From IMG/VR virus record IMGVR_UViG_2802429234_000006: a DNA stretch of 15,576 nucleotides; one strand, given 5' to 3'. The stretch's first letter is position 1. Each line of letters opens with the position of its first letter. The position numbers and the translations under genes were made by a program. The notes beneath the pieces were generated by a model. It ran no database searches. It saw nothing but the letters and a program-made list of their open reading frames with translations, and was not told the DNA's origin. Source of the stretch: a virus (taxonomy: Duplodnaviria > Heunggongvirae > Uroviricota > Caudoviricetes). This document shows positions 1 through 14,208 of this stretch, piece by piece.

Positions 1-1371
1 TTACCAATTAAAAATATAATCTTTTATTTTAAGATACATATCAACTTTCCCAGACCATTTTGATGCACTCTCTTTCATATTTTCAATAACATCATCAATC
101 AGTAAGTCTCTTCCTTTTACAATCAATTGATCATCATCAATACCCTCTGGTGCAAATTCATATATGTGCATGCTTAGATTAGACTTCTGAGTATGAGGGA
201 ATGAATCTTTTTCCACACACATACCAATAAACTCATTAATAGATAGTTCTTTCTGTTTACACATCATAAGTAATAATTCGAACTCATCAATTGTTATATA
301 GTAAATTCTTTTTAGATCAATGGGGATACTATGATATTTTTCAGATAACTCAGTTGATAGATCAGGGTTAATTAAATCCTGCACAACCATTGCATTTGAT
401 ATATGATGATCCCGATGCACCACAATTAACATTGAATCTTTCGAAGATGGTTTTCTCATCTCTATTTTATTTAAATTAAAAGCACATTCCTGACCTTGAT
501 AAATCCCTTTAATAAAACTCTTATTCAACCTTTCCTTTAGCAACTGAGCATTATTAGATGTTTTAACGAACTTTGCAGGCTCTATTGCCTTCGAGTCAAC
601 ATAAACTATTGAATCTCCTTCTGAAATAACAAAATCTACGGACTTGCAATTTTTTATTGCATTATCACTATAAATCTTCTTAACCTCCCTTTCAGTCTTA
701 AAGTTATAATTGTACTTATCAAGAAAGCGAGAAATATAAAGTTCCATCGTCTTACCAAATTTTTCTTTATAAGATTCCTTATAGACCTGCTTGAACAATT
801 CTGGAACTAGGTTGACAAACCCTGACTTCATGATTCTTTTGCATAATATCACTACACCATCGCCATCTAAAAACATTGGTTTACTGAGGAATGGTGTATC
901 TTCATAATACTCAGCGGTAATGTTTTTATCCAATTTATATGGGGCAATAAAATCTCTTACACCATCAATTTTTAAGCATGTTAATTCCAAAAATCTTTTC
1001 ACTTGTTCCGGACCAAATATCGGAACCAAGTTTATTATCAAGTGTTTAAATGGAATAACCTCTGATTCTACATCAGGATTAATACATGAAATAGCGGTAA
1101 AATAACATGCCATTTTGTAATAGCTTTCCAAATGTAAACCAGTACATTCTAAAAACTTATCTTTATAATATAATTCATCATTCAAGCAATACCAAATATA
1201 CTGTCTTGTTAATGAATTGGCATTAAATTTATCAGTTGATTGATAAAGCAACTGATTTATCACCATTCGTCTAAGGCTTAGCATAACTTTATCATCAACG
1301 ATTAAATTAGATGCTTCTAGTTGCAAGTTATAGATTAAGTTGATAATATCAATAAAATCATTTTTACTCAT
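1..1371 (-). CDS. Hypothetical protein, AT-rich cargo gene (456 aa from the ATG at 1371; the track ORF extends to 1434 only through non-ATG codons). Possible PD-(D/E)xK-like nuclease signature.
   Basis: Long uninterrupted ORF in a markedly AT-rich block. The ATG at 1369-1371 overlaps the TGA stop of the upstream small ORF (ATGA), suggesting translational coupling. No strong SD precedes any candidate ATG. The motif DFVISEGD-SIVYVDSK is encoded at about 589..636. No Walker A motif seen. Confidence 0.6.
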   Translation of the reverse strand: MSKNDFIDIINLIYNLQLEASNLIVDDKVMLSLRRMVINQLLYQSTDKFNANSLTRQYIWYCLNDELYYKDKFLECTGLHLESYYKMACYFTAISCINPDVESEVIPFKHLIINLVPIFGPEQVKRFLELTCLKIDGVRDFIAPYKLDKNITAEYYEDTPFLSKPMFLDGDGVVILCKRIMKSGFVNLVPELFKQVYKESYKEKFGKTMELYISRFLDKYNYNFKTEREVKKIYSDNAIKNCKSVDFVISEGDSIVYVDSKAIEPAKFVKTSNNAQLLKERLNKSFIKGIYQGQECAFNLNKIEMRKPSSKDSMLIVVHRDHHISNAMVVQDLINPDLSTELSEKYHSIPIDLKRIYYITIDEFELLLMMCKQKELSINEFIGMCVEKDSFPHTQKSNLSMHIYEFAPEGIDDDQLIVKGRDLLIDDVIENMKESASKWSGKVDMYLKIKDYIFNW

Positions 1372-1598
1372 TTCTTTTGCAGGCTTTTTTCCTTCATGCA
1401 AAACTTCCATTTCATTGCCAGATAGCAACACCAAGGGAAATTGGAAACAATACCCACCTCGACATCCCTTACTTTTTGGAAGTGTTCATAAAAATTTCTC
1501 AAAAAAGAAACATCACTAAAATATGACAATCTTTTCTTAATCGCATCAACTTTTATAGAATATGACATTGGTGTCATTGTTTTTATTGCCACGCTCAT
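1368..1598 (-). CDS. Small hypothetical protein (76 aa), first gene of a putative two-gene operon
   Basis: ATG at 1598 preceded by AAAAGG about 5 nt upstream. Its stop overlaps the ATG of the large downstream ORF. AT-rich promoter-like DNA lies upstream (1599-1680). Confidence 0.4.
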   Translation of the reverse strand: MSVAIKTMTPMSYSIKVDAIKKRLSYFSDVSFLRNFYEHFQKVRDVEVGIVSNFPWCCYLAMKWKFCMKEKSLQKK

Positions 1599-1974
1599 AA
1601 AAAACCTTTTATGATAAACATAGAGAAATATTTTATTTAAAAATCATCAAATACACGTTAATAAATATACATTTTTTAATTTTGCGTGCAACCCTATCCC
1701 CAATCAATACAAAATATTGTGCACACAAAATTGAAGAAGCCTATAACTATAGGTGCCTACTGACACCTATCAAGAAACTTGTTCACCCCCGACACAATTT
1801 AATTTGGCGTAGCTCACAATGTTCTCCTCAGCACACCTACCCCCACTTTATAGGACAGTTTTCATGCAGTACAGGCATAAACAAAAGCTCATCAGTTCTG
1901 GTGGTTCCTCACCACGAACATGCAGATAATACCTCAAAACATCATGTAACAATGTTGGCATTACACCACCAGCC

Positions 1975-1999
1975 ACAAAAAAGCCCTACCCTTAGGCTT
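1975..1999 (-). terminator. Putative intrinsic terminator (short stem AAGCC/GGCTT followed by a U-run on the minus-strand transcript)
   Basis: Inverted repeat at about 1981-1985 / 1995-1999 followed on the minus strand by TTTTTT. Lies about 40 nt downstream of the small ORF ending at 2039. Confidence 0.3.
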
Positions 2000-2038
2000 A
2001 ATGTTTGGCTTGGCTGTTGGCTTACCGTAACGCTCCGC

Positions 2039-2218
2039 TCACCGTCGCGGCCTGTCCGGTTTCTTCCACTGATACGGCCTCACATCATCCTGCTGGTGGC
2101 GTTCCTGTTGCAGCACAACGGAAACAGGCGCTGAACACCTGTTAATTTTGCTTGCTGGTTGTTTGATTTCGGCAATGCTGCGGATCATCTCCAGCAAATC
2201 GGCTTCGGTGATGGTCAT
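2039..2218 (-). CDS. Small hypothetical protein (59 aa; below the size cutoff of the ORF track)
   Basis: ATG at 2216-2218 with AAGGTG 7 nt upstream on the minus strand; hand translation MTITEADLLEMIRSIAEIKQPASKINR... runs to a TGA at 2039-2041. Sits immediately downstream of the repeat array. Confidence 0.3.
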   Translation of the reverse strand: MTITEADLLEMIRSIAEIKQPASKINRCSAPVSVVLQQERHQQDDVRPYQWKKPDRPRR

Positions 2219-2225
2219 GATTTAC

Positions 2226-2510
2226 ACCTTAGGAAATCTTAGGGGCTGGTTGACACTTTCCGGCTTGAGACCTTAACAAATCTTAACATCGCAGGTTGAC
2301 ACACTTGACACTTTTTCGCGAAAAACCTTATCAAACCTTAGCATTTCTAAGCATGGCAACTTGACACTTTTCGCGATTTTTTCGGCTTTTTGACGTGGTA
2401 AATCTGGCGCAAAGTCAGTAATGGCGAGGCTTCCAGCGAGGTTGACACTTTTTCGCGTTCAGAGTGTAAAGTGTCAACCTGGCAAGCTGCTCAACTTGAC
2501 ACTTTTTGAT
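2226..2510. repeat. Array of short direct repeats: at least 7 copies of TTGACAC (three as GTTGACACTTTTTCGCG), one inverted copy (GTGTCAACC), plus interleaved CCTTAnnAAAnCTTA repeats
   Basis: TTGACAC at about 2250, 2297, 2305, 2361, 2442 and 2495, with variant TTGACGT at 2389 and inverted copy at 2471-2479. CCTTA-type repeats at about 2226, 2271 and 2326. Non-coding interval between the HTH gene (stop 2512) and the small ORF (start 2218). Confidence 0.6.
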
Positions 2511-2511
2511 G

Positions 2512-3039
2512 TCATTGATGGTCTGATTTTTCCCATTCAGCCAGGGCGTTTAGCCCGGCTTCACTCCATGATTCCAGTTCATCGGGATAATCACCTGCAA
2601 CATAGCAGAGTTCGCAACGCAGCATACGAATTGCCAGCCTGGCATTACCCCGCAAATTGTATTGTTCAAAGTAATGCTGCCCGTCGCAATCCTCAAGGCA
2701 GATAGCACCATCATCAAGAAATTGCACTTCCCAGCCTAATTCCCCGGCTGCATCCAGCACACGCTGCTGTATGCCCTCGTCCGTTGCTGGCGCAGGAATT
2801 TTACCGTCTCTGGCCTTAACTGCTTTCCAGAACTCGCCCCACGTCATTTCCAGCGTTCTTTCTGGCCACATTTCAGAAACTGCGTCTTTTCCCTGTGCTG
2901 GTGGGCTGTTCCGCTGCTCTGTCGCTTCCACATCGATTTTTTTACCGGACATGATCACTTCGCCTTTCTCGATCCAGTCGTAAACTGTCTGGCGGCTTAC
3001 GCCTTTGTATTTGGCGTATTCGGCTTTACTCATCAACAT
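2512..3039 (-). CDS. Helix-turn-helix DNA-binding protein (175 aa); N-terminus resembles the winged-HTH of excisionase / AlpA / lambda Nu1 (TerS N-terminal) type proteins
   Basis: ATG at 3039 with GAGGTG 6 nt upstream (the track start at 3048 is a GTG). N-terminal MSKAEYAKYKGVSRQTVYDWIEKGEV fits the pattern of Nu1-like NKKQLADIFGASIRTIQNWQEQG. Acidic C-terminal half. Family assignment is from recollection, not a search. Confidence 0.65.
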   Translation of the reverse strand: MLMSKAEYAKYKGVSRQTVYDWIEKGEVIMSGKKIDVEATEQRNSPPAQGKDAVSEMWPERTLEMTWGEFWKAVKARDGKIPAPATDEGIQQRVLDAAGELGWEVQFLDDGAICLEDCDGQHYFEQYNLRGNARLAIRMLRCELCYVAGDYPDELESWSEAGLNALAEWEKSDHQ

Positions 3040-3138
3040 GTAGCTCACCTCATGCGTATACGATAAAAAATAATTTCATGCGGAAAGGGAATGCGTTGTG
3101 GGTATGGAGGAAAGGGGCAATAACCGCCCCTTACTGAT

Positions 3139-3411
3139 TCAGTTGCGCCAGGATGGCTGGCTAAGCGTGGTTTTCATTACATCATTGACGACCTGTTTTA
3201 CGATTTCTGTGTTGGCAGTCGTGCTTTCAACATCAACAAAGCCATAATCGCCAATTTCCACCGTCAGGGATTCCAGTTTCTTCCCTAGAGCATCAGGCAA
3301 CTCTCCACTGAACCGGTGCTGAAGATTTTCCACCAGCAACGCCCTGAATGCCTCGCTGTTCTCTTTTTTCTGCCATAGCTGGCGTTTATCCACTCTGATA
3401 TTTAATTTCAC
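3139..3411 (-). CDS. Hypothetical protein (90 aa), second gene of a small coupled operon
   Basis: Its ATG at 3411 overlaps the stop of the upstream 55-aa ORF (ATGA). A weak hairpin (GGGGC...GCCCC, about 3107-3125) lies downstream. Confidence 0.5.
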   Translation of the reverse strand: MKLNIRVDKRQLWQKKENSEAFRALLVENLQHRFSGELPDALGKKLESLTVEIGDYGFVDVESTTANTEIVKQVVNDVMKTTLSQPSWRN

Positions 3412-3575
3412 AGTCTCACCTCTTTAAGTGCCTTATCCATCAGTTGCCGGGCGATAACATGAATCGACGGTGCCACACCAAGCACAGATTTCTGACGCTC
3501 TTCGTCCTGGATGCGTTGCAGGGCTTCGATCTGGCTCCGGGAAAGTAAAACTGGCTTTACTCCGTGATTTTTCAT
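3408..3575 (-). CDS. Small protein (55 aa), possible DNA-binding regulator
   Basis: ATG at 3575 with AGGGAG 6-7 nt upstream; the track ORF upstream of this ATG is Cys/Tyr-rich and probably not coding. Palindromic operator-like sites lie 20-75 bp upstream. Confidence 0.5.
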   Translation of the reverse strand: MKNHGVKPVLLSRSQIEALQRIQDEERQKSVLGVAPSIHVIARQLMDKALKEVRL

Positions 3576-3594
3576 GATGCTCCCTTCTGAATGA

Positions 3595-3650
3595 CAATAA
3601 TTGCAATTATTGCACAAAATGAAATGATACCAACGATAATTGCAATAAAT
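3595..3650. promoter_or_regulatory. Two operator-like palindromes sharing an ATTGCAAT core: perfect 18-bp CAATAATTGCAATTATTG (3595-3612) and imperfect ATAATTGCAATAAAT (3636-3650)
   Basis: Perfect dyad symmetry read directly from the sequence, positioned in the presumed promoter of the 3575->3139 operon, centres about 39 bp apart. Confidence 0.4.
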
Positions 3651-3853
3651 GAAACAAAAAGCATCAATAAACCAACCTTCAGCACTAAATGCTCTGATTT
3701 TTCTGCAAAAGTATGGCAGATGTTGCTGCATGCAAACATAAAGGAAATAGCAGAAGAAACAGCGGGGAGTGAAAAGGGGAAGTTTTTATAAATACACGAT
3801 TGTCGCCCCACTGCAGGTTAACAGCCACAAGCTCCATGATAATAACTTGTTAA

Positions 3854-4177
3854 TTATTTCATCAGATTTTTCATTACTTGCGCGATTGAGTACACAAGCA
3901 AAAACTCGGCAGCCGCAAGAGTATAAAAAACATAAATTCGCTTAGCCCACCGACGATGAAAGAACTCCTCAGCATGGCCGGATGTTCGAGATACAAGCCA
4001 TGCACCTACTGCACACAGAGCAGGTGAAATGAGCACAGTTATAAACCAGATTGTGATGCCCATCCCATGCCTACTGATAATAGCCATTGGTATTGCAAAA
4101 ATGAATGTTAGAGCAGCATTAGCTAATAGAATATCTTTTAAAGTATTTTCAATTAGTTTTTCTAGATTATCTTTCAT
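3854..4177 (-). CDS. Small integral membrane protein (107 aa, 2-3 predicted transmembrane helices)
   Basis: ATG at 4177 with a G-rich SD (GGGGGG) 5 nt upstream. Hydrophobic stretches FIFAIPMAIISRHGMGITIWFITVLISPALCAVGAWLV and VFYTLAAAEFLLVYSI. AT-rich. Confidence 0.55.
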   Translation of the reverse strand: MKDNLEKLIENTLKDILLANAALTFIFAIPMAIISRHGMGITIWFITVLISPALCAVGAWLVSRTSGHAEEFFHRRWAKRIYVFYTLAAAEFLLVYSIAQVMKNLMK

Positions 4178-4206
4178 CTAATCCCCCCGTTGAACATTAA
4201 TATATA

Positions 4207-4229
4207 AAAGCCCCTTACTAAGGGGCTTT
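4207..4229 (-). terminator. Intrinsic terminator: 10-bp perfect stem (AAAGCCCCTT / AAGGGGCTTT) with a 3-nt loop, followed by a U-rich tract on the minus-strand transcript
   Basis: Directly downstream of the lipoprotein gene stop (4241); the minus-strand RNA continues as UUAUAUAUU. Confidence 0.55.
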
Positions 4230-4240
4230 GCGCGGATTGT

Positions 4241-5383
4241 TTAAAGGGAACTTTTTTTCGCCCCATCAATTTCTGCCTGACAAATTTCGTCATTTGTAAA
4301 TGAGTACTGCAGATAGACATATCCCTGAGTGGAATTGTTCGCTCTGGCCTCAATAGAGATAGTATCAATATTGTTTTTTAATGGTATTTCTTTTGTTCCC
4401 TTCCATGTGGCAGATAAGAAGCGTTCTTTTTTGTTTAGCCCCCTCATCCAGTCCTGAGGCTCTTTCCAAATTGAACCAGCCAGCAAAAAGTCTGTAGTAT
4501 CAGCCTTTCCATACAGAGAACTTAAAGAATTTCTCAATTCTTCAAACTTGGATTTAAGAGCCAATCCATAGCTATCAGTATCAATATTTTTTCCTAAAGC
4601 CCGTATTTGACATAAACCAGCTTTCGGGGAGATCAACAAACCATACATTTCAAAATCTGCGTTTTGCTTCGGTAATTTATCAGAAGTATACAGATTTACA
4701 CTGTCTGGTAGTGGCTTGAGCTTAGCACCGATCATATCTTCGATGTTTTTCTGTGTAAGACCGGCTTCTAAGCCGAACGGACCATCCGCTGGCGGGAGTA
4801 AAGGAAGTTGCTCTTGGGAATTTTTGGCTGTTACTTCCGTTTCAGTACTGTTTTTTGCGTCATTATCTTGTACTGATGCCAGCTTAACTTCAGCGAGGCC
4901 ATACTTGGCTGTGAGGTACTTTTGCTGCAACATTGCCATGGTCTGCTCTTCAGTGGCAACAGTAGATAATTTTAGTACCTTTATCAGACCACCGCTATAC
5001 TGACGAGCATCAGCTTTGGCTTCGTTGATTTTTGCATCTAAGCTGTCAATTTCAGTTTTAATTGAAGCCGCAAGCTCAGGATCAGGTTTAACTCCAGATA
5101 CAACAACATCAATTTTAGCACCTGATTCAATAGCATTAATACGCTGTTCCAAAATCGCTTTATTAGTTCCTAATATTTCCAGTCTTGCTGTTGTCAGATT
5201 TTTTATCAACCCACCAGAAAACTGCTGGTCAACTTCCTTAGCTGCTGATATTTCACCTTCCGTTTGCGACAGTTCAACTTTAAGAGCCGCTACTTCCTGT
5301 TTCTGTTCTGGAGTTAACTCTTCTGGCCCACATCCGGTTAACATTACTATACCGACTAATGTTGCAATTAAAGTTTTATTCAT
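4241..5383 (-). CDS. Lipoprotein (380 aa) with an internal tandem repeat and a coiled-coil-like N-terminal half
   Basis: Signal peptide with lipobox MNKTLIATLVGIVMLTGC. Internal repeat DQQFSGGLIKNL / ARQYSGGLIKVL. Long ORF followed by a strong terminator. Confidence 0.7.
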   Translation of the reverse strand: MNKTLIATLVGIVMLTGCGPEELTPEQKQEVAALKVELSQTEGEISAAKEVDQQFSGGLIKNLTTARLEILGTNKAILEQRINAIESGAKIDVVVSGVKPDPELAASIKTEIDSLDAKINEAKADARQYSGGLIKVLKLSTVATEEQTMAMLQQKYLTAKYGLAEVKLASVQDNDAKNSTETEVTAKNSQEQLPLLPPADGPFGLEAGLTQKNIEDMIGAKLKPLPDSVNLYTSDKLPKQNADFEMYGLLISPKAGLCQIRALGKNIDTDSYGLALKSKFEELRNSLSSLYGKADTTDFLLAGSIWKEPQDWMRGLNKKERFLSATWKGTKEIPLKNNIDTISIEARANNSTQGYVYLQYSFTNDEICQAEIDGAKKSSL

Positions 5384-5420
5384 ATCCCTATTCCAAATGA
5401 AAATATTCAGATTAATCTTA

Positions 5421-5804
5421 TCAGGAACCCAGATGCAATTGAATATTCATCTGCTCAGCAACGTAGTAGATTTCTTCAGAAAGCATCAACAAAAAACCAA
5501 GAGAATCCCATCCTCTGTTACTGACTACAATTGTTCTTTTTTGGTAATTCCTGAATGCCTTACCATTGGGCTGATGTAATCCCATCCCGGCATGTGCCCG
5601 GCTGATGGTTTCGCGCATCTCCCCGAAATTATCCTGCCTTGCCGGTAGGCGTGCTGCCTTGCGTATACATTCCGCGCGACGTTTTGCCGCCTGTTCCCGT
5701 GCTTTGTCATCATTCGCCAGCATGATGACCTCAGCCCATCGCTCCGCCGCTCTCCGGTACAGGCCACGCGCTTCCAGTGCTTCCGCTTTACTGTCGCGTA
5801 TCAT
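5421..5804 (-). CDS. PerC-family-like transcriptional regulator (127 aa)
   Basis: ATG at 5804 with AAGGAGG 10 nt upstream and an ATGA overlap with the preceding ORF. N-terminal KAEALEARGLYRRAAERWAEV resembles the conserved N-terminal motif of PerC/Pch-type activators as I recall it; not confirmed by search. Confidence 0.5.
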   Translation of the reverse strand: MIRDSKAEALEARGLYRRAAERWAEVIMLANDDKAREQAAKRRAECIRKAARLPARQDNFGEMRETISRAHAGMGLHQPNGKAFRNYQKRTIVVSNRGWDSLGFLLMLSEEIYYVAEQMNIQLHLGS

Positions 5805-6049
5805 GCGCTTTTTCCCTCCTTCATGGCCTTACGCTGGCGCTTGTGCTTCTCATTCAGCGCCATCAGCCGCGTTTCTGCGTCCTGTTGTTCCTGTGGTGTC
5901 ACCTCGCCGCATGGCTGGCCTTTCAGGTCGTAACGCACTCCACCAGCAACCAGAGCGCGGTAATAGCGCGGAGACTGCGCATAAGATGCCAGCGTCGCAC
6001 GTAATGCCCTTAGCCCGAATGCCAGCCCCCTGACGGCGATATCCTGCAT
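5801..6049 (-). CDS. Hypothetical small protein (about 82 aa from the ATG at 6049; the track extends to a GTG at 6160)
   Basis: Stop overlaps the PerC-like start (ATGA). GC-rich region with overlapping alternative frames, so the start is uncertain. Confidence 0.35.
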   Translation of the reverse strand: MQDIAVRGLAFGLRALRATLASYAQSPRYYRALVAGGVRYDLKGQPCGEVTPQEQQDAETRLMALNEKHKRQRKAMKEGKSA

Positions 6050-6117
6050 CAGGTCGTCGAATATCCCCCACCTTAAGCGGCTTCGGTGCTTCCCGGCTGA
6101 ATAATTCAGGCCACAAC

Positions 6118-6342
6118 TCAGTGGCGGTTTTTGCGCTGCCGTTTGGTCATATGCCGCCACGGTGTCGCCCCTGTGGGCTTCTGCTGCACTTTCTGGTTAC
6201 CGGGCATCACTTTATGCGCCGATGTGGTTTTATCCTGCTCCTGTGCCGACTGCGTCGTTTTCTGCGTCGTGCCGAAAATGCCTTTTGGCTTTCTGTTAAT
6301 GGTCAGCTTTGTCATGCTCTTCCCCATCATTGTTGCCGTCAT
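6118..6342 (-). CDS. Hypothetical small basic protein (74 aa)
   Basis: Hydrophilic, Lys/Arg/Thr/Gln-rich ORF just downstream of the putative origin. No clear SD at the first ATG; an internal ATG has GGGAAGAG upstream. Competing plus-strand frames are Cys-rich and look non-coding. Confidence 0.25.
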   Translation of the reverse strand: MTATMMGKSMTKLTINRKPKGIFGTTQKTTQSAQEQDKTTSAHKVMPGNQKVQQKPTGATPWRHMTKRQRKNRH

Positions 6343-6496
6343 ATCGGCGTGTAATCATCAAAACAGTCTGATTGTCAAAATTACATATCTGCTTTTATGC
6401 CTTTTTCTGGTCGGATGGCTGACGGTAGCCACCCGTAATACAAAATTTGAGCAATCACTTTTCTGTACTCTATAAGGCGTAAAAAACCATTTTTAC

Positions 6497-6769
6497 CGGG
6501 ATATCGGGATACAAACAAAAAACAACTTATTTTTCATTATGTTATGTGGTTTTTCGTATCCCGCCATATCCCGGTAAGTTTTTTTTTGCTTATGCATCAA
6601 TAACATATTTCGGGATACGTTCCGGGATACAGTGATTTCGTTTATTTTTAAACCATTCGTAAACCAAAATACTGGGATACGGCGGGATATGGCGGGATAC
6701 GATAGCAACACATAAGCAATTGATATTTATGTAATATATTTTTCATATCCCGATATCCCGCATATCCCG
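6497..6769. repeat. Putative replication origin: 12 copies of the 8-mer (C/T)GGGATA(C/T) in direct and inverted blocks, interleaved with AT-rich spacers
   Basis: Copies at 6497, 6505, 6611, 6623, 6673, 6683 and 6693 (forward) and 6556, 6566, 6745, 6753 and 6762 (inverted). Spacers contain long A/T runs. Lies 30-300 bp downstream of the replication protein gene stop (6802). Confidence 0.7.
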
Positions 6770-6801
6770 CGATTTTTGACCCTCTGCGAGCGTAGGCGGT
6801 T

Positions 6802-8934
6802 TTATTCGTCTTCAGCCAGGTCAATCAGCACGATAAATCGCTGCTGTGTTCCGTTAATCTTCACCGTTTTCGATGTCCAGCGACCGGGTTCTGCACAAAC
6901 CAGCACTCCGGCTTCCTCCAGCGCCTGGCACCCAAAGTTTCTGGATATGCCGCATAAAATTTCTCCATCAAACACTGACGGAATAATGTGATATTCGGGT
7001 TTTCCATCTTCCCGCTTACCGCTGACAAGATACCCTGCAAGGTTATTTATACGGGATGCATAGTGGTTATCCATATCTCCATTGCTTTTCCCGTAGGTAT
7101 AAGGCTGAAAACGGCTCAGGGCATGGCGCTGAATAAAATCACGGGCGCGGCTGATGACCTGGTATTTTTCCCGGTTTTCCAGCCCGAAATCCTGTAACCA
7201 GTCATCAAAAGCCCGTTGCGTTGCTGCCCGACATTCTTTTGCTGTCCAGCCAGTAATTGCGGTGGCAAGTTCTCCGGCCGCATCCAGCATGGCAAAGCGT
7301 GAAGCCACACGTCTGACCTGTGACGATGCATTTTCAGGCAGATTTCCCAGCCAGGTATTTTCTTTATCGGAAGTGGTGTTAATAGCCAGTTCCTTATGAG
7401 CGGATAACCAGCGCACCCACTCACGCCCCGCAGCTCCACAATAATTTGATGAAAGTCGCTTTATTGCTCTGGCATGTTGATCACCATCGTCATACCCGTT
7501 AAAAACCGTTGTATCGGTAAAGGGAACGCTTAGCAGCCGCACCAGTTGCCCGGCTTTTGGGGTGATCCCCCCTTTTAACAGGAAGGTCTCAAAATCTTCT
7601 TCCCCTGTGCTTAGTGCCGCTATTTTCCAGCGCATTACTGCACGATTGCCGCCATCTTTTCGTCCCTGAATTCTCCCCACACCGTTAAACAGGCTGTAGG
7701 CGGATTGCGCGATGTCATTAATCCTTCCTCCCTGACCAATTTCATCAATGGGGATAAAGCCATCATTACGTGCGGCAGCTTCCACCGTCAGTCCGTGCCG
7801 GGTGGCATCCCACGAAAGTTTGAGCATTTCAGGATCGCCATAAAGACTGGTGGCAGCTTCCACTGTCGTGGTTTTCCCTGCTGACGACTGCGCGAAAAGG
7901 TGGATACCAAAACAACTTCCGCCCACAAGAGAATTAAGGGGTGCTGCCAGTCCGACCAGTACCCCAAGCATCATTGAGTGATTACCTCGCATCAGGGAGG
8001 CGACATTATTCCTCCATTCCTGTACCGTCCCCCTGACGATATAGCCTTTGATGGCTGCAGATCCGCCACAGAATGCCACTGGACGATCCGGTACACCAAT
8101 CACCTCACCATCTGGCATAACATAGGCTCCACAATGCCATCCGGCTGTTGATGTGACCTCCCACACAGTACGATCTCCCTGACGTTGCAGGTATTCCGCC
8201 AGTTTATTCAGTAAATGGGCGCTGGTGGTGATTGCAACACCCCGTCCACGTAACCTCGCCCATCCTGCTGGCATACCGATTTCATTGCGCGGCATCGCTT
8301 CGTAAATAATTTTCTGTGTTCCTTCCGGGATCATTTCAATTATCAGATACGCTTCCCGACCATCATTACCAATACCCGCTGTGCGCATCCTGTCACTCAA
8401 CCAGGTTTCCTTATGATTCAGCTCCTCTGCTCTGGTATTGGGTATTGGCTCGACATACCAGAGCGCACCATCTTTTTCGGTGATATGCGGTTTCATGGGA
8501 TCTGTTCTTCCGGGCAATCCACCCGCTCTCCTGACTTCCTCCGTCATGGTTTCCCCGCGCTCTGCCTGTTCGCGGATCCGTTGCAGGTAGTCGCGCCAGT
8601 TCTCAGGCTCCCGGTCGGGGATACCTTTGTATAATTTCGCCTCCTGTACGCCAGCCAGCGCCAGTTTTTCGGCGACAGCGTTAATCAGGATTGGCTCAAT
8701 CTCCCCCGCGATATAAACACGCGCAAAGCGGCGCTCATCGTCGACAATGCGGATATTCGCAAGCTCTGCAAGTTGCTTTGGCCCCAGGTAAACAGGCGGC
8801 ACGCTATCGCCATGTTTTCGTCCTTCGCTTTCAATCCAGTGTTGAGCATGGGCGTAAGCGTCCGTCCCGGCAAAAATGATTACCTCAGTGAATTTATCCT
8901 TCGGCTGATATTTTAAATTCGGTGCGTTTTTCAC
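6802..8934 (-). CDS. Replication protein, primase-helicase-like (710 aa): P-loop NTPase core with a possible Toprim-like N-terminus
   Basis: Walker A-like AQSSAGKTT and Walker B-like FIPIDEIG read from the translation. GTG start at 8934 with GGGAGG 6-7 nt upstream, overlapping the stop of the preceding ORF (GTGA). An iteron array lies immediately downstream. Resemblance to DUF927 / phage-plasmid primase families is from recollection. Confidence 0.8.
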   Translation of the reverse strand: MKNAPNLKYQPKDKFTEVIIFAGTDAYAHAQHWIESEGRKHGDSVPPVYLGPKQLAELANIRIVDDERRFARVYIAGEIEPILINAVAEKLALAGVQEAKLYKGIPDREPENWRDYLQRIREQAERGETMTEEVRRAGGLPGRTDPMKPHITEKDGALWYVEPIPNTRAEELNHKETWLSDRMRTAGIGNDGREAYLIIEMIPEGTQKIIYEAMPRNEIGMPAGWARLRGRGVAITTSAHLLNKLAEYLQRQGDRTVWEVTSTAGWHCGAYVMPDGEVIGVPDRPVAFCGGSAAIKGYIVRGTVQEWRNNVASLMRGNHSMMLGVLVGLAAPLNSLVGGSCFGIHLFAQSSAGKTTTVEAATSLYGDPEMLKLSWDATRHGLTVEAAARNDGFIPIDEIGQGGRINDIAQSAYSLFNGVGRIQGRKDGGNRAVMRWKIAALSTGEEDFETFLLKGGITPKAGQLVRLLSVPFTDTTVFNGYDDGDQHARAIKRLSSNYCGAAGREWVRWLSAHKELAINTTSDKENTWLGNLPENASSQVRRVASRFAMLDAAGELATAITGWTAKECRAATQRAFDDWLQDFGLENREKYQVISRARDFIQRHALSRFQPYTYGKSNGDMDNHYASRINNLAGYLVSGKREDGKPEYHIIPSVFDGEILCGISRNFGCQALEEAGVLVCAEPGRWTSKTVKINGTQQRFIVLIDLAEDE

Positions 8935-9221
8935 TTCTTACCTCCCGCAACCAACATTGCCCGGATTTTTTTAATATTCGTGGCTGCACGTCTCGCCACC
9001 GCCTGTTGTTTGTTTTCCACCAGAATAAAATCACGCTCAAACTGACGGCGCGGCATTACGCAGTCATATTCGTAAGCCTCACGGCGGTAGGTGATATTGC
9101 CTGGCGTAACGTGACGAATAACCACTCGTCCACCACGTCTGGTGTCGCGGTAAATATCTCCGTGTCTGATTTCAGGCCGAGAGAGACCGCTGGCAGTAAA
9201 GCCAGAATTTTTCTTTTTCAT
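8931..9221 (-). CDS. Hypothetical basic protein (96 aa), translationally coupled to the replication protein
   Basis: ATG at 9221 with AGGA about 10 nt upstream; stop overlaps the replication gene start by 4 nt. Confidence 0.5.
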   Translation of the reverse strand: MKKKNSGFTASGLSRPEIRHGDIYRDTRRGGRVVIRHVTPGNITYRREAYEYDCVMPRRQFERDFILVENKQQAVARRAATNIKKIRAMLVAGGKK

Positions 9222-9225
9222 GGTT

Positions 9226-9426
9226 TTATTTTCCTGTCAGCAGTTCCGGTTTTATTCCTGCACGAATACAGAGTTCAGAAAAGCCTTCTACCGTACTTAC
9301 AATTTCATTATTTCGCAGCCGGCATTGTGATTTCACGTTCCCTTTATCCAGGTAAACCAGTACGCGTCCGGTGAAATCCTCTGGCACATTCAGGGTAATT
9401 GTCATTGTTGCTGGCTTATTACCCAT
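9226..9426 (-). CDS. Small protein (66 aa) carrying one copy of a DFTGxxLVxxxxGxV domain
   Basis: ATG at 9426 with AGGGGGTG upstream; overlaps the stop of the preceding ORF by 8 nt. Shares the motif with both halves of the 121-aa neighbour. Confidence 0.5.
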   Translation of the reverse strand: MGNKPATMTITLNVPEDFTGRVLVYLDKGNVKSQCRLRNNEIVSTVEGFSELCIRAGIKPELLTGK

Positions 9427-9784
9427 GATTCACCCCCTGAATGACCTGATAACCGCAACTGGTCAGCAATTCGATAAATTCCGGCAGTGTGCCGAAACAG
9501 CAATCATCACGCAGACATTCGCGGGATACCTCGACGCCGTTTTCGTAGTGACTCACCATGCGTCCGGTAAAATGCAGATCATCATCGTGATGGCTCGTTA
9601 ACGGCTTAATCAGTCGCGCACGTTCTGCCAGTTCCAGCAATGCTTCAACGCTTCCGGCAATTGCACCATCCGGCAGGTTGTAATTACGCACTATGCGCCC
9701 GTTCTCCACATGGACCAGTAGCTGCCCGGTAAATTTCTCGTCAAACTGAATGCTGTTAAGGTCAGCAATTGACAGGTTATGCAT
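9419..9784 (-). CDS. Hypothetical protein (121 aa from the ATG at 9784) containing two tandem copies of the same DFTG-motif domain
   Basis: Internal duplication FTGQLLVHVENGRIV / FTGRMVSHYENGVEV. The ATG overlaps the upstream stop within ATGCATAA (8-nt overlap). The track start at 9814 is a TTG. Confidence 0.5.
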   Translation of the reverse strand: MHNLSIADLNSIQFDEKFTGQLLVHVENGRIVRNYNLPDGAIAGSVEALLELAERARLIKPLTSHHDDDLHFTGRMVSHYENGVEVSRECLRDDCCFGTLPEFIELLTSCGYQVIQGVNHG

Positions 9785-9980
9785 GGCGCATCCCCTGACG
9801 AATACGGGTGGCAAATACCATCACGCAGCCATCAGGAGATTGCTGGCGTGCTTCCTGTTCGCTGGTAGCCTCGATGTGAATTACGCGCTGTTGTGCTGTG
9901 CTCAGGGCGATAAAACGCCAGATGTATTTATTCAGGTTGTGCGAGTCCCGCCCTTGCGGGTGTGTGGTATGATTTCTCAT
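9777..9980 (-). CDS. Small hypothetical protein (67 aa), first gene of the operon leading to the replication gene; possibly Icd-like
   Basis: ATG at 9980 with GAGG 6 nt upstream. It is the C-terminal part of a 286-aa track ORF whose upstream portion runs through a divergent promoter region and the opposite-strand small gene, so only this segment is taken as coding. The Icd-like label is a weak recollection. Confidence 0.45.
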   Translation of the reverse strand: MRNHTTHPQGRDSHNLNKYIWRFIALSTAQQRVIHIEATSEQEARQQSPDGCVMVFATRIRQGMRHA

Positions 9981-10077
9981 AGCTACCTCGATACTGTTGC
10001 TATCGTTGGTGGTTAGAAGCCCGGTTAGTGTTCGCGCACTGCCGGGTTTCGTCGTTTCTGCACCTTGCATCAACAAG

Positions 10078-10129
10078 GTGTTTAACACCAATTTAAACCT
10101 AGGTGTTAAACACGTCAAGTGTTGAACAC
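10078..10129. promoter_or_regulatory. Three operator-like palindromes GTGTT-N-AACAC in a divergent promoter region
   Basis: GTGTTTAACAC (10078-10088), GTGTTAAACAC (10103-10113) and GTGTTGAACAC (10119-10129). A possible sigma70 promoter for the plus-strand gene (TTGAAC at 10122-10127, 17-bp spacer, CATACT at 10145-10150) overlaps the third site. Confidence 0.5.
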
Positions 10130-10179
10130 TTGTTTTTTTTCCTGCATACTGCATTTGTTTTTTGTGAGGGGGACACAAC

Positions 10180-10359
10180 ATGGCGACAAAAGCAGTAAAC
10201 GCAAAATCACAAACAGTTGCGGCAAGGGTTCCGCATGAAGTTATGAACAATGTTGAGGCAGTAAAAATGCCTGGTGAAAGTACAGGGCAGTTTGTAACAG
10301 CAGCATTAAAGCGAGAAGTTGAGTACCGCCAGCGCCGCAAGGCCAAAGAACAGGAGTAG
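10180..10359 (+). CDS. Small ribbon-helix-helix-like DNA-binding protein (59 aa); the only plus-strand gene of the element in this window
   Basis: ATG at 10180 with GAGGGGG 8-14 nt upstream; hand translation MATKAVNAKSQTVAARVPHEVMNNVEAVKMPGESTGQFVTAALKREVEYRQRRKAKEQE to TAG at 10357-10359. The RVPxEV...S...FV..AL pattern is typical of Arc/CopG-type RHH proteins. Not in the ORF track (under 60 aa). Confidence 0.5.
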   Translation: MATKAVNAKSQTVAARVPHEVMNNVEAVKMPGESTGQFVTAALKREVEYRQRRKAKEQE

Positions 10360-10583
10360 TTGATCAACACCGGGCGCCCAGAAAAAATCGTATCAGTCGC
10401 GCCACCAGCAAAATTTTTTGCTTTCCGGACGATGTGGCCAACGACATTTTGCAGCAAAATATTCTGCATTTCTGGCGTGCTGTAGTAACGGTGATCAGCG
10501 CCTTCACTCTGTGCGACCACAACGCTATAATCTGCCTCGTAGACAGTAAGCAATATGGTGCTACAGGTAATTCGTTCACAAAG

Positions 10584-10614
10584 GCGCTCCGGCAACGGGG
10601 CGCTTTCTCTTTTT
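10584..10614 (+). terminator. Intrinsic terminator: 8-bp stem with GCAA tetraloop followed by TTTCTCTTTTT
   Basis: GCGCTCCG (10584-10591), loop GCAA, CGGGGCGC (10596-10603, one G-U pair), then a T-rich run. Sits between the convergent RHH gene (+) and the antirepressor gene (-). Confidence 0.5.
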
Positions 10615-10629
10615 GTAACGGTCAGAGCG

Positions 10630-11478
10630 TTACACATGGCTGTTTTCCTCCATGCGACGGGCTAACCAACGCTGCGAAAGGCGAATTAATTCAGCTTTCC
10701 GCTGGTGGTAGTCCTGGCCTAACTCAATCAGCGTGATATTGCTCTGCTCAAGGTAAGAAAGGTGCTCAAGCTGCAACGTGCTCATGTGGTCGCGTGGTTC
10801 GCCTGTGATGCCGTTCGCCAGTGCCCACTGTTTTGCAGTCATGCCACCCAGCACGATACGCGCCAGCATATTGGCTTCCGTGGTGTAATGGTGCTGTAGA
10901 GTGTTTTTACCCAGTTCAGCCCGGTACGCCTCCAGCGCGGCACACATTGGCTTAAAGTAGCTGGCAACTGTGATACGGGCTTTCAGTTCCCGGCGTAACG
11001 CTGCGGAACGTACAGGCGCAACCTTGTGTAGCTCTTCCTCGCATTTGATGAAGTACTGACGAACGGCGCGCCCCTGTTCGGTGCGTTCGACCATCGCCAG
11101 TTCTTTCGCCATGTTCGTGGAGATCAAATAGTCTTCACTGCGGCGATCACCGCCGCGCTTTGTTGTCCAATCAGAATCAAACTGTTCAATATTTACACTT
11201 TGGTTCCCCCGTTTCGGGGAATCAAAGTACAAATTTTCTACAACTTCAAAATCCACGCCATTTTTAAATCCGTACTCATCAATACGTCCTTTAATCCAGG
11301 TAGTGAAATCACGGCCTACCCCGAGCGCCTTATGCAACGCTCTGGCGCTAACAATATTGGTTTCACGCCCGCCAATAACGCCGGAAATAACCGGGATAAT
11401 TTCACCAAAATTTTGCAGATTCTGGTTTTCAGGTCGAATGAAGCCCTGCCCCTGTACGGGCGTTTTTCGCAGTTTCAT
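10630..11478 (-). CDS. Phage antirepressor-like protein (282 aa; AntA/Rha/KilA-type regulatory domains)
   Basis: ATG at 11478 with GGAG 7 nt upstream. Segments ARALHKALGVGRDFTTWIKGRI and ISTNMAKELAMVERTEQGRAVRQYFIKCEEEL resemble conserved blocks of phage antirepressor / Rha-family proteins as I recall them. Confidence 0.65.
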   Translation of the reverse strand: MKLRKTPVQGQGFIRPENQNLQNFGEIIPVISGVIGGRETNIVSARALHKALGVGRDFTTWIKGRIDEYGFKNGVDFEVVENLYFDSPKRGNQSVNIEQFDSDWTTKRGGDRRSEDYLISTNMAKELAMVERTEQGRAVRQYFIKCEEELHKVAPVRSAALRRELKARITVASYFKPMCAALEAYRAELGKNTLQHHYTTEANMLARIVLGGMTAKQWALANGITGEPRDHMSTLQLEHLSYLEQSNITLIELGQDYHQRKAELIRLSQRWLARRMEENSHV

Positions 11479-11555
11479 AAAAACTCCGCTATCGAATTAA
11501 GTTACTTTTTATTTGCTGGTGGATAGCTGGGGCGCCTGGCCCCGTTGCCATTTAA

Positions 11556-11753
11556 TCAGGTAGCTGTTCCGCGTGATTCCGCAATACGCTGATTAATCCA
11601 CTCGTCAATTTCACTCTCAACGAAAGCAATCGCTCGCGAGCCAATTTTTACAGGTTTAGGAAAACGCCCTTGGGCAATGAGTTTATAGATCCATGCCCTG
11701 CCATAGCCTGTACGGCGCATGGTTTCTGGCATACGAATTAAAGATTGTGACAT
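11556..11753 (-). CDS. alpA: AlpA-family transcriptional regulator / excisionase-like HTH protein (65 aa)
   Basis: ATG at 11753 with GGGAG upstream (the track start at 11822 is a GTG and runs through the operators). Sequence MSQSLIRMPETMRRTGYGRAWIYKLIAQGRFPKPVKIGSRAIAFVESEIDEWI is characteristic of AlpA/Xis-type proteins. Confidence 0.8.
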   Translation of the reverse strand: MSQSLIRMPETMRRTGYGRAWIYKLIAQGRFPKPVKIGSRAIAFVESEIDEWINQRIAESRGTAT

Positions 11754-11760
11754 GATAATC

Positions 11761-11793
11761 GTCTCCCGTTGTTTATTGATGCCTACGGGAGAC
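11761..11793 (-). promoter_or_regulatory. Leader hairpin (8-bp inverted repeat GTCTCCCG / CGGGAGAC with a 17-nt loop) that includes the alpA Shine-Dalgarno sequence
   Basis: Inverted repeat at 11761-11768 and 11786-11793. On the minus-strand mRNA the downstream arm contains GGGAG, the SD of alpA. Confidence 0.35.
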
Positions 11794-11820
11794 ATTGAAG
11801 CAGGTAAGACATTGGATATC

Positions 11821-11855
11821 ACCGCAATTGCGGTGAATGATACCGCAATTGCGGT
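11821..11855. promoter_or_regulatory. Tandem pair of perfect 14-bp palindromes ACCGCAATTGCGGT (operator-like), centres 21 bp apart
   Basis: Identical copies at 11821-11834 and 11842-11855, each perfectly self-complementary, in the interval between the 251-aa gene stop and the alpA start. Confidence 0.5.
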
Positions 11856-11867
11856 ATAGGACTAGAA

Positions 11868-12623
11868 CTACGATTTAATTGATTTATTGGCTTCAGCAAA
11901 CTTTGCTTCCAGCGTTCTTGAACTCATCCCCGGCTTACCTTCAAAATGCCCCAATAAATTACTAATAATAGAGCTTTGATTTTCGAATACAGATTGCTTA
12001 ATACCAGCAGGTGAACGCCCTAACATTAGAAAAAGCAACCCTCCAATAATGTTTAAATATGTTGTTTCAGAACGTTGGTCAATGTTTTGCACGGAGTTAT
12101 CAACCATTCGTCGTAGTGAATCACGTTCCCCTTGTAATTCGGAAATTTCATTTTTCTGCTGTTGGAAAGTCTTCATAGCATTATCTAAGCGAATATTAAG
12201 ACGTTTGTTTTCAGCCTGAAGAGTTTGATATGCCTCGACTGTAATTCCAGCATGTAACTGCTGCTCAACAGCATCAAAAAGGAAAGCTGGTTTTTGGTTG
12301 GGATAGTTTTTTGACATCCATGATTTCAGATCGGAATGGCGGACGGTTAAACGGTGCTTAGCAACCTGTTCTCCAGGTTGAACAGTTTTACCATCACGGC
12401 CATAAGGAATTTCACAATTATGGATTGCATCTAAAATTTTCTCAGCATTAACACGCAAGCAAGGCCATTGAGGGAACATTCCAACGCTAGGTAAAACTCC
12501 ATCTCCCACTCGCTCCAATATTAAAACTTCATGAGCAATTAAATTACACCAACGTAGCGCCGCTTCAATTGGAGTGTAATATGCCTTTTCAAGAGAACTA
12601 CAGCTTTTTGAATTGTAAGTCAC
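11868..12623 (-). CDS. Hypothetical protein (251 aa), AT-rich, with a central coiled-coil-like segment and a C-terminal hydrophobic stretch
   Basis: Long ORF with a GTG start at 12623 and GAGGT about 8 nt upstream. Noticeably lower GC than the flanking integrase and alpA. No recognisable catalytic motif. Confidence 0.55.
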   Translation of the reverse strand: MTYNSKSCSSLEKAYYTPIEAALRWCNLIAHEVLILERVGDGVLPSVGMFPQWPCLRVNAEKILDAIHNCEIPYGRDGKTVQPGEQVAKHRLTVRHSDLKSWMSKNYPNQKPAFLFDAVEQQLHAGITVEAYQTLQAENKRLNIRLDNAMKTFQQQKNEISELQGERDSLRRMVDNSVQNIDQRSETTYLNIIGGLLFLMLGRSPAGIKQSVFENQSSIISNLLGHFEGKPGMSSRTLEAKFAEANKSIKS

Positions 12624-12751
12624 TCTGTGCTACCTCGCACCCTCTGTAAAAGTGGCTGTGCCAGCCCGCAGAGGTGTACGGGTTTTCAGGAGCGACCCTA
12701 GACACAGCCTTTTCTTAATCGCTCAAAGTCTACTACTGTATACTCAACCAG

Positions 12752-13966
12752 TCACCCGCATTTTCCGAACTCACCATGCACCACATTTCCGCCATGCTCG
12801 AGCGAATCCATATAGTCGGCATACCACTGGAGCATCTCCCGGCGACCATCCAGATATTGCGCATGGTTGTATGTGCCACGAATTGAGTTTTTATCGACGT
12901 GTGCAAGCTGTGTCTCTATCCACGCGGTGTTATAGCCCTGCTCATGCAAAATGGTGCTCATGGTGTGCCGGAATCCATGACCAGTAACCTTTCCGTTATA
13001 GCCGATGCGTTTAAATACTTGGTTTATGCTAGCCTCGCTCATTGTTTTCCTTGGATCATTACGGCCGGGAAACATAAGCGGATAATTGCCAGTTAATTCT
13101 TTAATCTGCCCAATAAGAGAAAGAGCCTGCTTAGACAAAGGCACCACATGAGGGCGACGCATTTTCATCCGTGAAGCAGGTATCTCCCAGATAGCCTTGT
13201 TGAGATCGATTTCATCCCATAATGCACCGCGCAGTTCGCCAGTCCGCAAACCGGTGATAATCAGTAGACGAGCCGCCATAACAACCAATGCACTTCCTGA
13301 GTAACTGGACAATGCCTTGAAAAAATCAGGTAATTCTTTGGCTGTGAGGAAAGGATAATGATTAGATTCATGACCTTGCATCGCGCTGGTGAGATCCGGT
13401 GCAGGGTTATACTCAGCACGTCCAGTGACAATTGCATAGCGGAAAACTTCCCCGCATCGCTGCCTCACTTTTTTGGCTTTTTCGGTAGCACCGCGCCCCT
13501 CGATACGCCGCAGCACATTCAGCAGTTCAAGTGGTTTGATTTCGGCGATTGGTTTTTTGCCAATGTAAGGGAACACATCTTTGTTGAAGGCTTCGAGGAT
13601 GTCTGAAGCATAACCAGCAGACCATTTTTTTAATTTGCTGCTGTGCCACTCAATGGCAATATCTTTGAAGGTGTTGTTTAACTGCGTTTCCCGGGCAATC
13701 TTTTCCTCTCGTTTCGCTTCCATCGGATCGATACCCCCAGCGATACTCCTTTTAGCTTCTTCACGTTTTGCACGAGCATCAGCCAAGGTAACTTCAGGAT
13801 ACACACCTAGTGCTAACAGCTTCTCTTTACCAGCTACACGATACTTGAAGCGCCAATATTTTCCTCCACTAGGTTTTACCAAGAGATACAGACCACCACC
13901 ATCAGCCAGCTTGTAAGCCTTCTCTTTTGGCTTGGCAGTGTCTATTTGACGGGCATTGAGTTTCAC
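12752..13966 (-). CDS. int: Tyrosine site-specific integrase, P4 / CP4-57 IntA family (404 aa)
   Basis: N-terminal pattern AKPKEKAYKLADGGGLYLLVKPSGGKYWRFKY and C-terminal catalytic region HGFRHT...RGTYNHAQY typical of P4-type integrases. GTG start at 13966 with GGAGG 9 nt upstream. Lies next to and co-oriented with a tRNA gene. Confidence 0.9.
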   Translation of the reverse strand: MKLNARQIDTAKPKEKAYKLADGGGLYLLVKPSGGKYWRFKYRVAGKEKLLALGVYPEVTLADARAKREEAKRSIAGGIDPMEAKREEKIARETQLNNTFKDIAIEWHSSKLKKWSAGYASDILEAFNKDVFPYIGKKPIAEIKPLELLNVLRRIEGRGATEKAKKVRQRCGEVFRYAIVTGRAEYNPAPDLTSAMQGHESNHYPFLTAKELPDFFKALSSYSGSALVVMAARLLIITGLRTGELRGALWDEIDLNKAIWEIPASRMKMRRPHVVPLSKQALSLIGQIKELTGNYPLMFPGRNDPRKTMSEASINQVFKRIGYNGKVTGHGFRHTMSTILHEQGYNTAWIETQLAHVDKNSIRGTYNHAQYLDGRREMLQWYADYMDSLEHGGNVVHGEFGKCG

Positions 13967-13968
13967 TT

Positions 13969-14041
13969 GGGGGTACCTCCACTAAACCGAACAGCAAATA
14001 CCCCCAAAAGTACCCCCAATTGACTGTAGATTTTGGGGTAC
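13969..14041. repeat. Four copies of GGGGTAC in alternating orientation between the integrase start and the tRNA (candidate arm-type recombinase or accessory-protein sites in attL)
   Basis: GGGGGTACC (13969-13977), TACCCCC (13999-14005), GTACCCCC (14010-14017) and GGGGTAC (14035-14041), read directly. Confidence 0.3.
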
Positions 14042-14132
14042 TTAAGTAGACGTCAAAAGACTAAAAGGGGCGCTAACATGCGGATTATAAGAGGTTTTTA
14101 AATACTTGAGTAGACTTGGGGAGACGTTAGAA

Positions 14133-14208
14133 TGGTGCCGATAATAGGAGTCGAACCTACGACCTTCGCATTACGAATGCGCTGCTCTACCAACTGAGCT
14201 ATATCGGC
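14133..14208 (-). tRNA. thrW: tRNA-Thr (anticodon CGU), thrW-type; integration target of the element
   Basis: Minus-strand sequence GCCGATATAGCTCAGTTGGTAGAGCAGCGCATTCGTAATGCGAAGGTCGTAGGTTCGACTCCTATTATCGGCACCA folds as a canonical cloverleaf: 7-bp acceptor stem, D-arm GCTC/GAGC, anticodon loop TTCGTAA, T-loop TTCGACT, encoded CCA. Confidence 0.92.

Follow-up and report, generated by a model that had tools for sequence, protein, structure and literature searches.

The first 1,598 nucleotides of the virus record IMGVR_UViG_2802429234_000006 (IMG/VR; Caudoviricetes), a stretch of 15,576 nucleotides hereafter called the window, raise the question of whether two overlapping open reading frames (ORFs) constitute a two-gene defence operon or the remains of a single gene. 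The original prediction, made from the sequence alone, favoured a coupled operon encoding a 76-residue and a 456-residue protein, a candidate defence or abortive-infection module that could not be placed in any known family. Judging from a family profile and from closely related copies in Escherichia coli, positions 1..1598 (minus strand) are instead one gapS1 gene of the GapS1/GAPS1 family, broken by a -1 frameshift, with position 1 being the last base of its stop codon; in other words, a disrupted member of this family and not a separate one. The overall picture, namely that of a frameshifted single gapS1 within the AT-rich cargo of a thrW island of E. coli, at the end away from the integrase, is considered likely.

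The sequence features from which an operon was deduced were described accurately. On the minus strand, the smaller ORF (1368..1598, 76 amino acids) starts with the ATG at 1598 and terminates with the TGA at 1370..1368, and the larger one (1..1371, 456 amino acids) has its ATG at 1371 and its TAA at 3..1, or, in a mechanical version that extends to the TTG at 1434, comprises 477 amino acids. The stop and start codons of the two ORFs overlap in an ATGA (1368..1371), and inspection of the sequence found no purine-rich Shine-Dalgarno element before the ATG at 1371 nor before the ATG located 13 codons upstream. Comparison with intact translations reveals, however, how the two products are composed. 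The 76-residue one consists of GapS1 residues 1-71 followed by five out-of-frame residues (SLQKK) and the TGA, and the 456-residue one corresponds to GapS1 residues 77-532, which hold a winged-helix-like region and a PD-(D/E)xK domain.

Assignment to the family is based on the NCBIfam profile NF047931 ('antiphage_GapS1'), which spans 455 positions and has a curated cut-off of 320 bits. The large ORF matches profile positions 58-455 (376 bits, E 2.7e-112) and the small one positions 1-53 (E 2.4e-11). When one A is restored, a 532-residue ORF is obtained, whose residues 20-478 match positions 1-455 in a single stretch (436 bits, E 1.6e-130); both the large fragment alone and the restored ORF exceed the family cut-off. 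The same 1750 bases are found in six complete E. coli genomes at 98.9-99.3% identity, and in five of them they contain a single 1599-nt coding sequence (CDS) of 532 amino acids, annotated as 'gapS1: GapS1 family protein' in four cases and as 'hypothetical protein' in the fifth. In the alignment, the sole frame-changing difference between the window and these intact copies lies in a homopolymer of the coding strand, which counts six A in the window (A6, 1385..1390, minus strand, read as T6 on the plus strand) and seven in the intact copies (A7). GapS1 is an already known defence family (Mahata et al., bioRxiv 10.1101/2023.03.28.534373), and RefSeq already lists the intact allele of E. coli under the name gapS1, which settles the placement that the original prediction had left blank.

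A search of the restored protein against 5.8 billion proteins retrieved 45 homologues with identities down to 25%, from Pantoea, Cronobacter, Rahnella, Salmonella, Klebsiella, Pectobacterium, Serratia, Leclercia and Permianibacter. Query coverage is 94-100% for nearly all of them. Every homologue is a single protein; 43 of the 45 are 508-550 amino acids long, and the two exceptions are shorter and stem from small contigs. Thus an uninterrupted polypeptide that joins the N-terminal region to the nuclease, the feature missing from the copy in the window, is present throughout the set, and the split arrangement was seen in none of the 45. Other collections added little: in Pfam, the only match was TPD (PF14811), at 18 bits against a cut-off of 27, which is regarded as sub-threshold noise, and in PHROGs the single match was phrog_14259, a family of unknown function. 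Neither the two fragments nor the intact protein had a match in PADLOC-DB v2.0.0 (2023); as this release predates the GAPS systems, its null result is no argument against a defence role.

These comparisons bear directly on the operon proposal. A translationally coupled module, pairing a small protein with a nuclease for defence or abortive infection, would be in keeping with the ATGA overlap and with a large ORF that has no ribosome-binding site of its own, but both features are explained by a frameshift within one gene, under which the ATG at 1371 is the codon for Met77 of the intact protein and SLQKK an out-of-frame read-through. Moreover, the small ORF corresponds to the N-terminal part of the very family model that the large ORF matches, and the recurrence of the pair in other genomes, which the original prediction proposed to check, is not borne out, since the two parts are not conserved as separate genes among the 45 homologues nor in five of the six near-identical E. 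coli copies. A genuine two-gene module is therefore exceedingly improbable. The codon of Met77 (1369..1371) encodes Met in 21 of the 24 sequences of the homologue alignment, the remaining ones having Leu or Ile, a pattern of conservation that would fit a buried hydrophobic position, although an internal start is also conceivable.

If the region is a single gene, the next question is whether the missing A is real, as a change in homopolymer length is the commonest type of sequencing error. Were A6 a sequencing or assembly error within the A7 run, the organism would carry an ordinary, functional gapS1. Error-like noise is in fact visible in other gapS1 assemblies: the copy of strain 537-20 combines a run of eight A (A8) with two further 1-nt deletions, and that of GCA_974498155.1 combines A6 with another 1-nt deletion in an upstream A-run, these additional single-base indels resembling long-read errors. 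On the other hand, the window is 100% identical, A6 included, to contig PTRF01000015.1 of the draft assembly GCA_002965705.1 at NCBI over 4598 nt and to the Logan assembly of the raw reads of run SRR3972138 over 4194 nt, even if these three identical A6 sequences may not come from independent isolates or platforms. The broken gene of strain 537-20 (NZ_CP091534.1; retrieved locus 3001..4369) is annotated as two CDSs, one of which is named 'orthopoxvirus A36R protein', an evident misannotation.

Exact-sequence look-ups of the truncated product provide a further indication. The 76-residue product is confined to a few E. coli contigs with the same A6 lesion and exists in two N-terminal variants, with Met at position 11 (M11) on four contigs and Val (V11) on three Logan contigs, for a total of seven contigs; the predicted products of the A8 allele were not found in these look-ups. 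The M11 contigs comprise two haplotypes, the window type and an L002-like type (GCA_974498155.1), so that A6 occurs on at least three haplotypes once the V11 type is included. The existence of two product variants, and of two haplotypes within one of them, implies that the loss of one A from A7 recurs. In addition, the gene for a ProQ/FinO-like protein of 176 amino acids in the same island (5804..6315, minus strand) is broken as well: with respect to three sister islands it is now spread over three frames by a 17-bp deletion followed, 48 nt on, by a 1-bp insertion in a G-run. The 17-bp deletion cannot be a homopolymer error, and therefore this island copy is decaying, while the other island genes that could be compared with the sister island of strain K99B are intact. 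On balance, A6 can be held with good confidence to be a real mutation, the A6 allele being most likely a real pseudogene, and an error concealing an intact gene is unlikely.

A real change in tract length might nonetheless be a switch. By slipped-strand mispairing, the run could toggle between an ON state (A7) and OFF states (A6 and A8), or -1 slippage during transcription or translation could yield some full-length GapS1 from the A6 allele. Three tract lengths (A6, A7 and A8) indeed coexist among closely related copies, A6 recurs on several backgrounds as described above, and a -1 slip of the tRNA-Lys on the A-run would recreate the intact ...KEKKPAKE... sequence exactly. However, efficient phase variation or transcriptional slippage usually needs a longer tract than six or seven A, the A-run lies outside the X XXY YYZ register of tandem slippage, and neither the two Lys residues nor the tract are conserved in the homologues; for the register and the lack of conservation, programmed -1 frameshifting is not favoured. 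Furthermore, some tract variants may be sequencing errors, and recurrent homopolymer loss is also expected under relaxed or negative selection on a costly gene. A switch is thus considered very unlikely. If it existed, lineages could silence and re-awaken a costly, dormancy-inducing defence gene, with A6 as an OFF state open to reversion and not a dead allele. The recurrent loss on several haplotypes suggests that gapS1 has been inactivated repeatedly.

To appreciate what this copy would have lost, the intact protein has to be considered. Helices make up its N-terminal region, a winged-helix-like module follows, and the C-terminal part is a PD-(D/E)xK domain with Asp322, Asp335 and Lys337. Conservation was assessed on an alignment of 24 homologues, and structure on an AlphaFold model of a 99%-identical intact allele (pLDDT 88.4). 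The catalytic motif DFVISEGDSIVYVDSK (589..636, minus strand), in which a nuclease core had been surmised, is of the form D322-x12-D335-x-K337: Asp322 and Lys337 are invariant, and position 335 is Asp or Glu. Vibrio GAPS1 likewise acts as one protein and ends in a PD-(D/E)xK phosphodiesterase domain, in which the substitutions D313A and K328A abolish defence against phage T7 (10.1101/2023.03.28.534373). Its site D313...D326-A-K328, as read from the published mutagenesis primers, matches Asp322, Asp335 and Lys337 in spacing and flanks, KSV-D-FVISEGDSIVYV-D-S-K-AIEP here corresponding to KVV-D313-FLHQRNGTSIFI-D-A-K328-GVEP, so that Asp322 and Lys337 align with the two essential residues. Among the positions named for substitution in the numbering of the 477-residue version, Asp267, Asp280 and Lys282 are these same conserved catalytic residues, in that order, whereas Asp274 (Asp329 of the intact protein) is not conserved and drops out.

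The predicted fold agrees with the nuclease assignment. In the model, an alpha-beta-beta-beta-alpha-beta core is present, with strands 323-327 and 330-337 around the catalytic motif, the first Asp lying at the start of the second strand and the (D/E)xK on the third, and this predicted fold matches that of restriction-endonuclease-like nucleases. An invariant Glu286 (codon at 742..744, minus strand) sits in helix 275-295, ahead of the catalytic strands, and may be the acidic helix residue that many PD-(D/E)xK enzymes possess, with a putative catalytic role. The HRDHH cluster (residues 395-399; 403..417, minus strand), which had been noticed in the large ORF, directly follows the fourth core strand (389-394), its Asp397 being invariant and its His398 conserved in at least 90% of the homologues. 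No Walker A motif is present, in agreement with the earlier observation, as the GKT tripeptide at residues 282-284 is not preceded by the upstream glycine and lies inside a predicted helix. A profile search of the PDB sequences returned nothing meaningful.

A conserved element outside the nuclease is PWCCYLAMKW (codons 55-64; 1407..1436, minus strand), in which Pro55, Trp56 and Lys63 are invariant and Cys58, Leu60 and Trp64 are conserved in at least 90% of the homologues. The motif falls within the 76-residue fragment, for which four helices are predicted (residues 10-67), and even the shortest complete-looking homologue, of 477 amino acids, still starts at this PW...KW motif. According to the proposed course of events, the A7 run, located at codons 70-72, would have lost one A; ribosomes initiating at the true start would then terminate after 76 codons, with the break at codon 72, and the remaining 456 codons, from Met77 to the end, would lack both the PW...KW segment and a dedicated ribosome-binding site. 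Loss of function of the A6 allele is the most likely outcome.

What the intact relatives would do can be outlined by analogy with the tested proteins. T7 mutants that escape Vibrio GAPS1 map to the major capsid protein Gp10, and co-expression of GAPS1 and Gp10 leads to growth arrest with viability being kept; three cloned E. coli homologues, 24-29% identical to Vibrio GAPS1, protect against coliphages, and strain ZH142-A devoid of its native GAPS1 homologue is sensitive to BASEL21 (10.1101/2023.03.28.534373). By extrapolation, the nuclease domain would be turned on by a phage protein, which for T7 and Vibrio GAPS1 is the major capsid protein, and this activation would lead to growth arrest, that is dormancy and not death, and would stop the infection; trigger and outcome in the subfamily found here are presumed to resemble those of the tested relatives. 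A few considerations weigh against this interpretation of the locus, besides those already raised on the homopolymer. The 456-residue fragment retains the whole nuclease domain, so that residual or deregulated activity is conceivable, and slippage on the A-run may restore the frame at a low level. Moreover, the subfamily differs from the tested proteins, namely Vibrio GAPS1 and four E. coli homologues: in the N-terminal portions that the source provides for two tested E. coli homologues, LPWVVNLCIKW and MPWIVNLCLKW stand against FPWCCYLAMKW here, and these portions are otherwise unlike, so that, to this extent, the subfamily matches neither of the two.

The genomic context is that of a mobile island with a defence hotspot. 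The gene lies in a variable cargo block, of which the window contains only the inner part (1..1965). The lower GC content noted in the original prediction is evident from the figures, with 0.307 for 1..1598 and 0.316 for 1..1965 against 0.471 for the rest of the island (1966..14132). At the opposite end lie a tyrosine integrase gene (12752..13966, minus strand) and the attachment-site gene for tRNA-Thr(CGT), thrW (14133..14208, minus strand), followed by proA. In related genomes, gapS1 closes the island, with a LysR-type pseudogene and then paoD beyond it. The backbone of the sister islands corresponds to that of the window from position 1966 or 2248 on, but their gapS1 slot holds different cargo. 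In particular, E. coli 55989 has AriA and AriB of the PARIS system there (retrieved locus 4703..6659; PADLOC E 5e-43 and 3.6e-22); in strain K99B the slot is filled by a DUF4747 protein together with a 199-residue hypothetical protein (retrieved locus 5249..6741), a pair with no match in PADLOC or NCBIfam that could be an undescribed defence candidate. The presence of PARIS in the same slot supports the position as a defence hotspot and, together with the family match, the earlier placement of anti-phage cargo at the variable, integrase-distal end; separately acquired defence cargo at this hotspot is thus supported. A second copy of the 3' end of the tRNA-Thr gene (16-30 nt), as a distal border of the island, was not found in the window nor in nine related loci.

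Further features complete the description of the window. About 150 nt upstream of the gapS1 start, a candidate sigma-70-like promoter (TTGATA-16-TATAGT, 10 of 12 positions; 1746..1773, minus strand) falls in a region where the number of such matches is not above the expectation from shuffled sequence, and a terminator-like hairpin with a T-run (1981..1999, minus strand) marks the junction between backbone and cargo. Between gapS1 and the integrase, the window contains a DUF927 primase/helicase gene (6802..8934) along with PerC-like, ProQ-like, DUF4222, AntA-type antirepressor and AlpA genes, an Icd-like region and several small genes of unknown function. Between a 59-residue ORF and a 178-residue ORF (2512..3048, minus strand), six exact copies of TTGACACTTT, five direct and one inverted, are clustered within 256 nt (2250..2505); with one mismatch allowed, TTGACACTTT has seven matches in the window, a number reached by none of 200 shuffles. 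The array may serve as operator, iteron or packaging site. The 178-residue ORF has an N-terminal helix-turn-helix with weak likeness to excisionase and small-terminase families (phrog_57, E 1.4e-6; TIGR01764 below cut-off). Finally, the 286-residue mechanical ORF at 9777..10637 (minus strand) shows Icd-like and repressor matches only in residues 196-285, its last 90 or so, and is probably over-extended, since the sister islands annotate in the equivalent region shorter Icd-like genes (73-121 amino acids) and, in the upstream part, plus-strand YlcI/YnfO genes.

As regards annotation, both ORFs are best joined into one entry for a frameshifted gapS1 instead of being presented as a novel defence pair. 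More generally, an ATGA overlap without a ribosome-binding site in AT-rich cargo can signal a homopolymer frameshift. In thrW islands of E. coli, moreover, the position at the far end from the integrase is a defence hotspot occupied by GapS1, PARIS or the DUF4747 pair according to the strain.

Among known systems, the closest is GAPS1 itself, a GMT-encoded Anti-Phage System that Mahata et al. (bioRxiv 10.1101/2023.03.28.534373) found in Vibrio parahaemolyticus on Gamma-Mobile-Trio (GMT) islands. With it, the gene described here shares a single protein of about 530 amino acids when intact, the spacing and flanks of the PD-(D/E)xK site, the PW...KW motif and a location as cargo of a mobile island. 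In contrast with Vibrio GAPS1, the present copy is frameshifted into fragments of 76 and 456 amino acids, and the island that carries it is inserted at thrW and encodes a tyrosine integrase instead of being of the GMT (GmtX/Y/Z) type. In sister thrW islands, the same integrase-distal slot is taken by PARIS (AriA/AriB) and other cargo of the kind seen in P4-like or PICI-like island hotspots, but PARIS consists of two genes for unrelated proteins, an ABC-type ATPase and a DUF4435/Toprim nuclease. Cleavage domains of the FokI and BspD6I type belong to the PD-(D/E)xK superfamily as well; however, identity to them is only 9-12%, GapS1 has no partner methyltransferase, and activation of GAPS1 gives dormancy. 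Upx (PMC13099982, PMC13601566; PDB 9wuf) is a single-protein PD-(D/E)XK defence nuclease too, but it has 1212 amino acids and two nuclease domains, and it senses the terminase. Identity between GapS1 and Upx is 8-11%, with no match at the sequence level, but in the predicted model the likeness of fold appears to extend beyond the nuclease core, and this likeness may link two single-protein sensor-nucleases.
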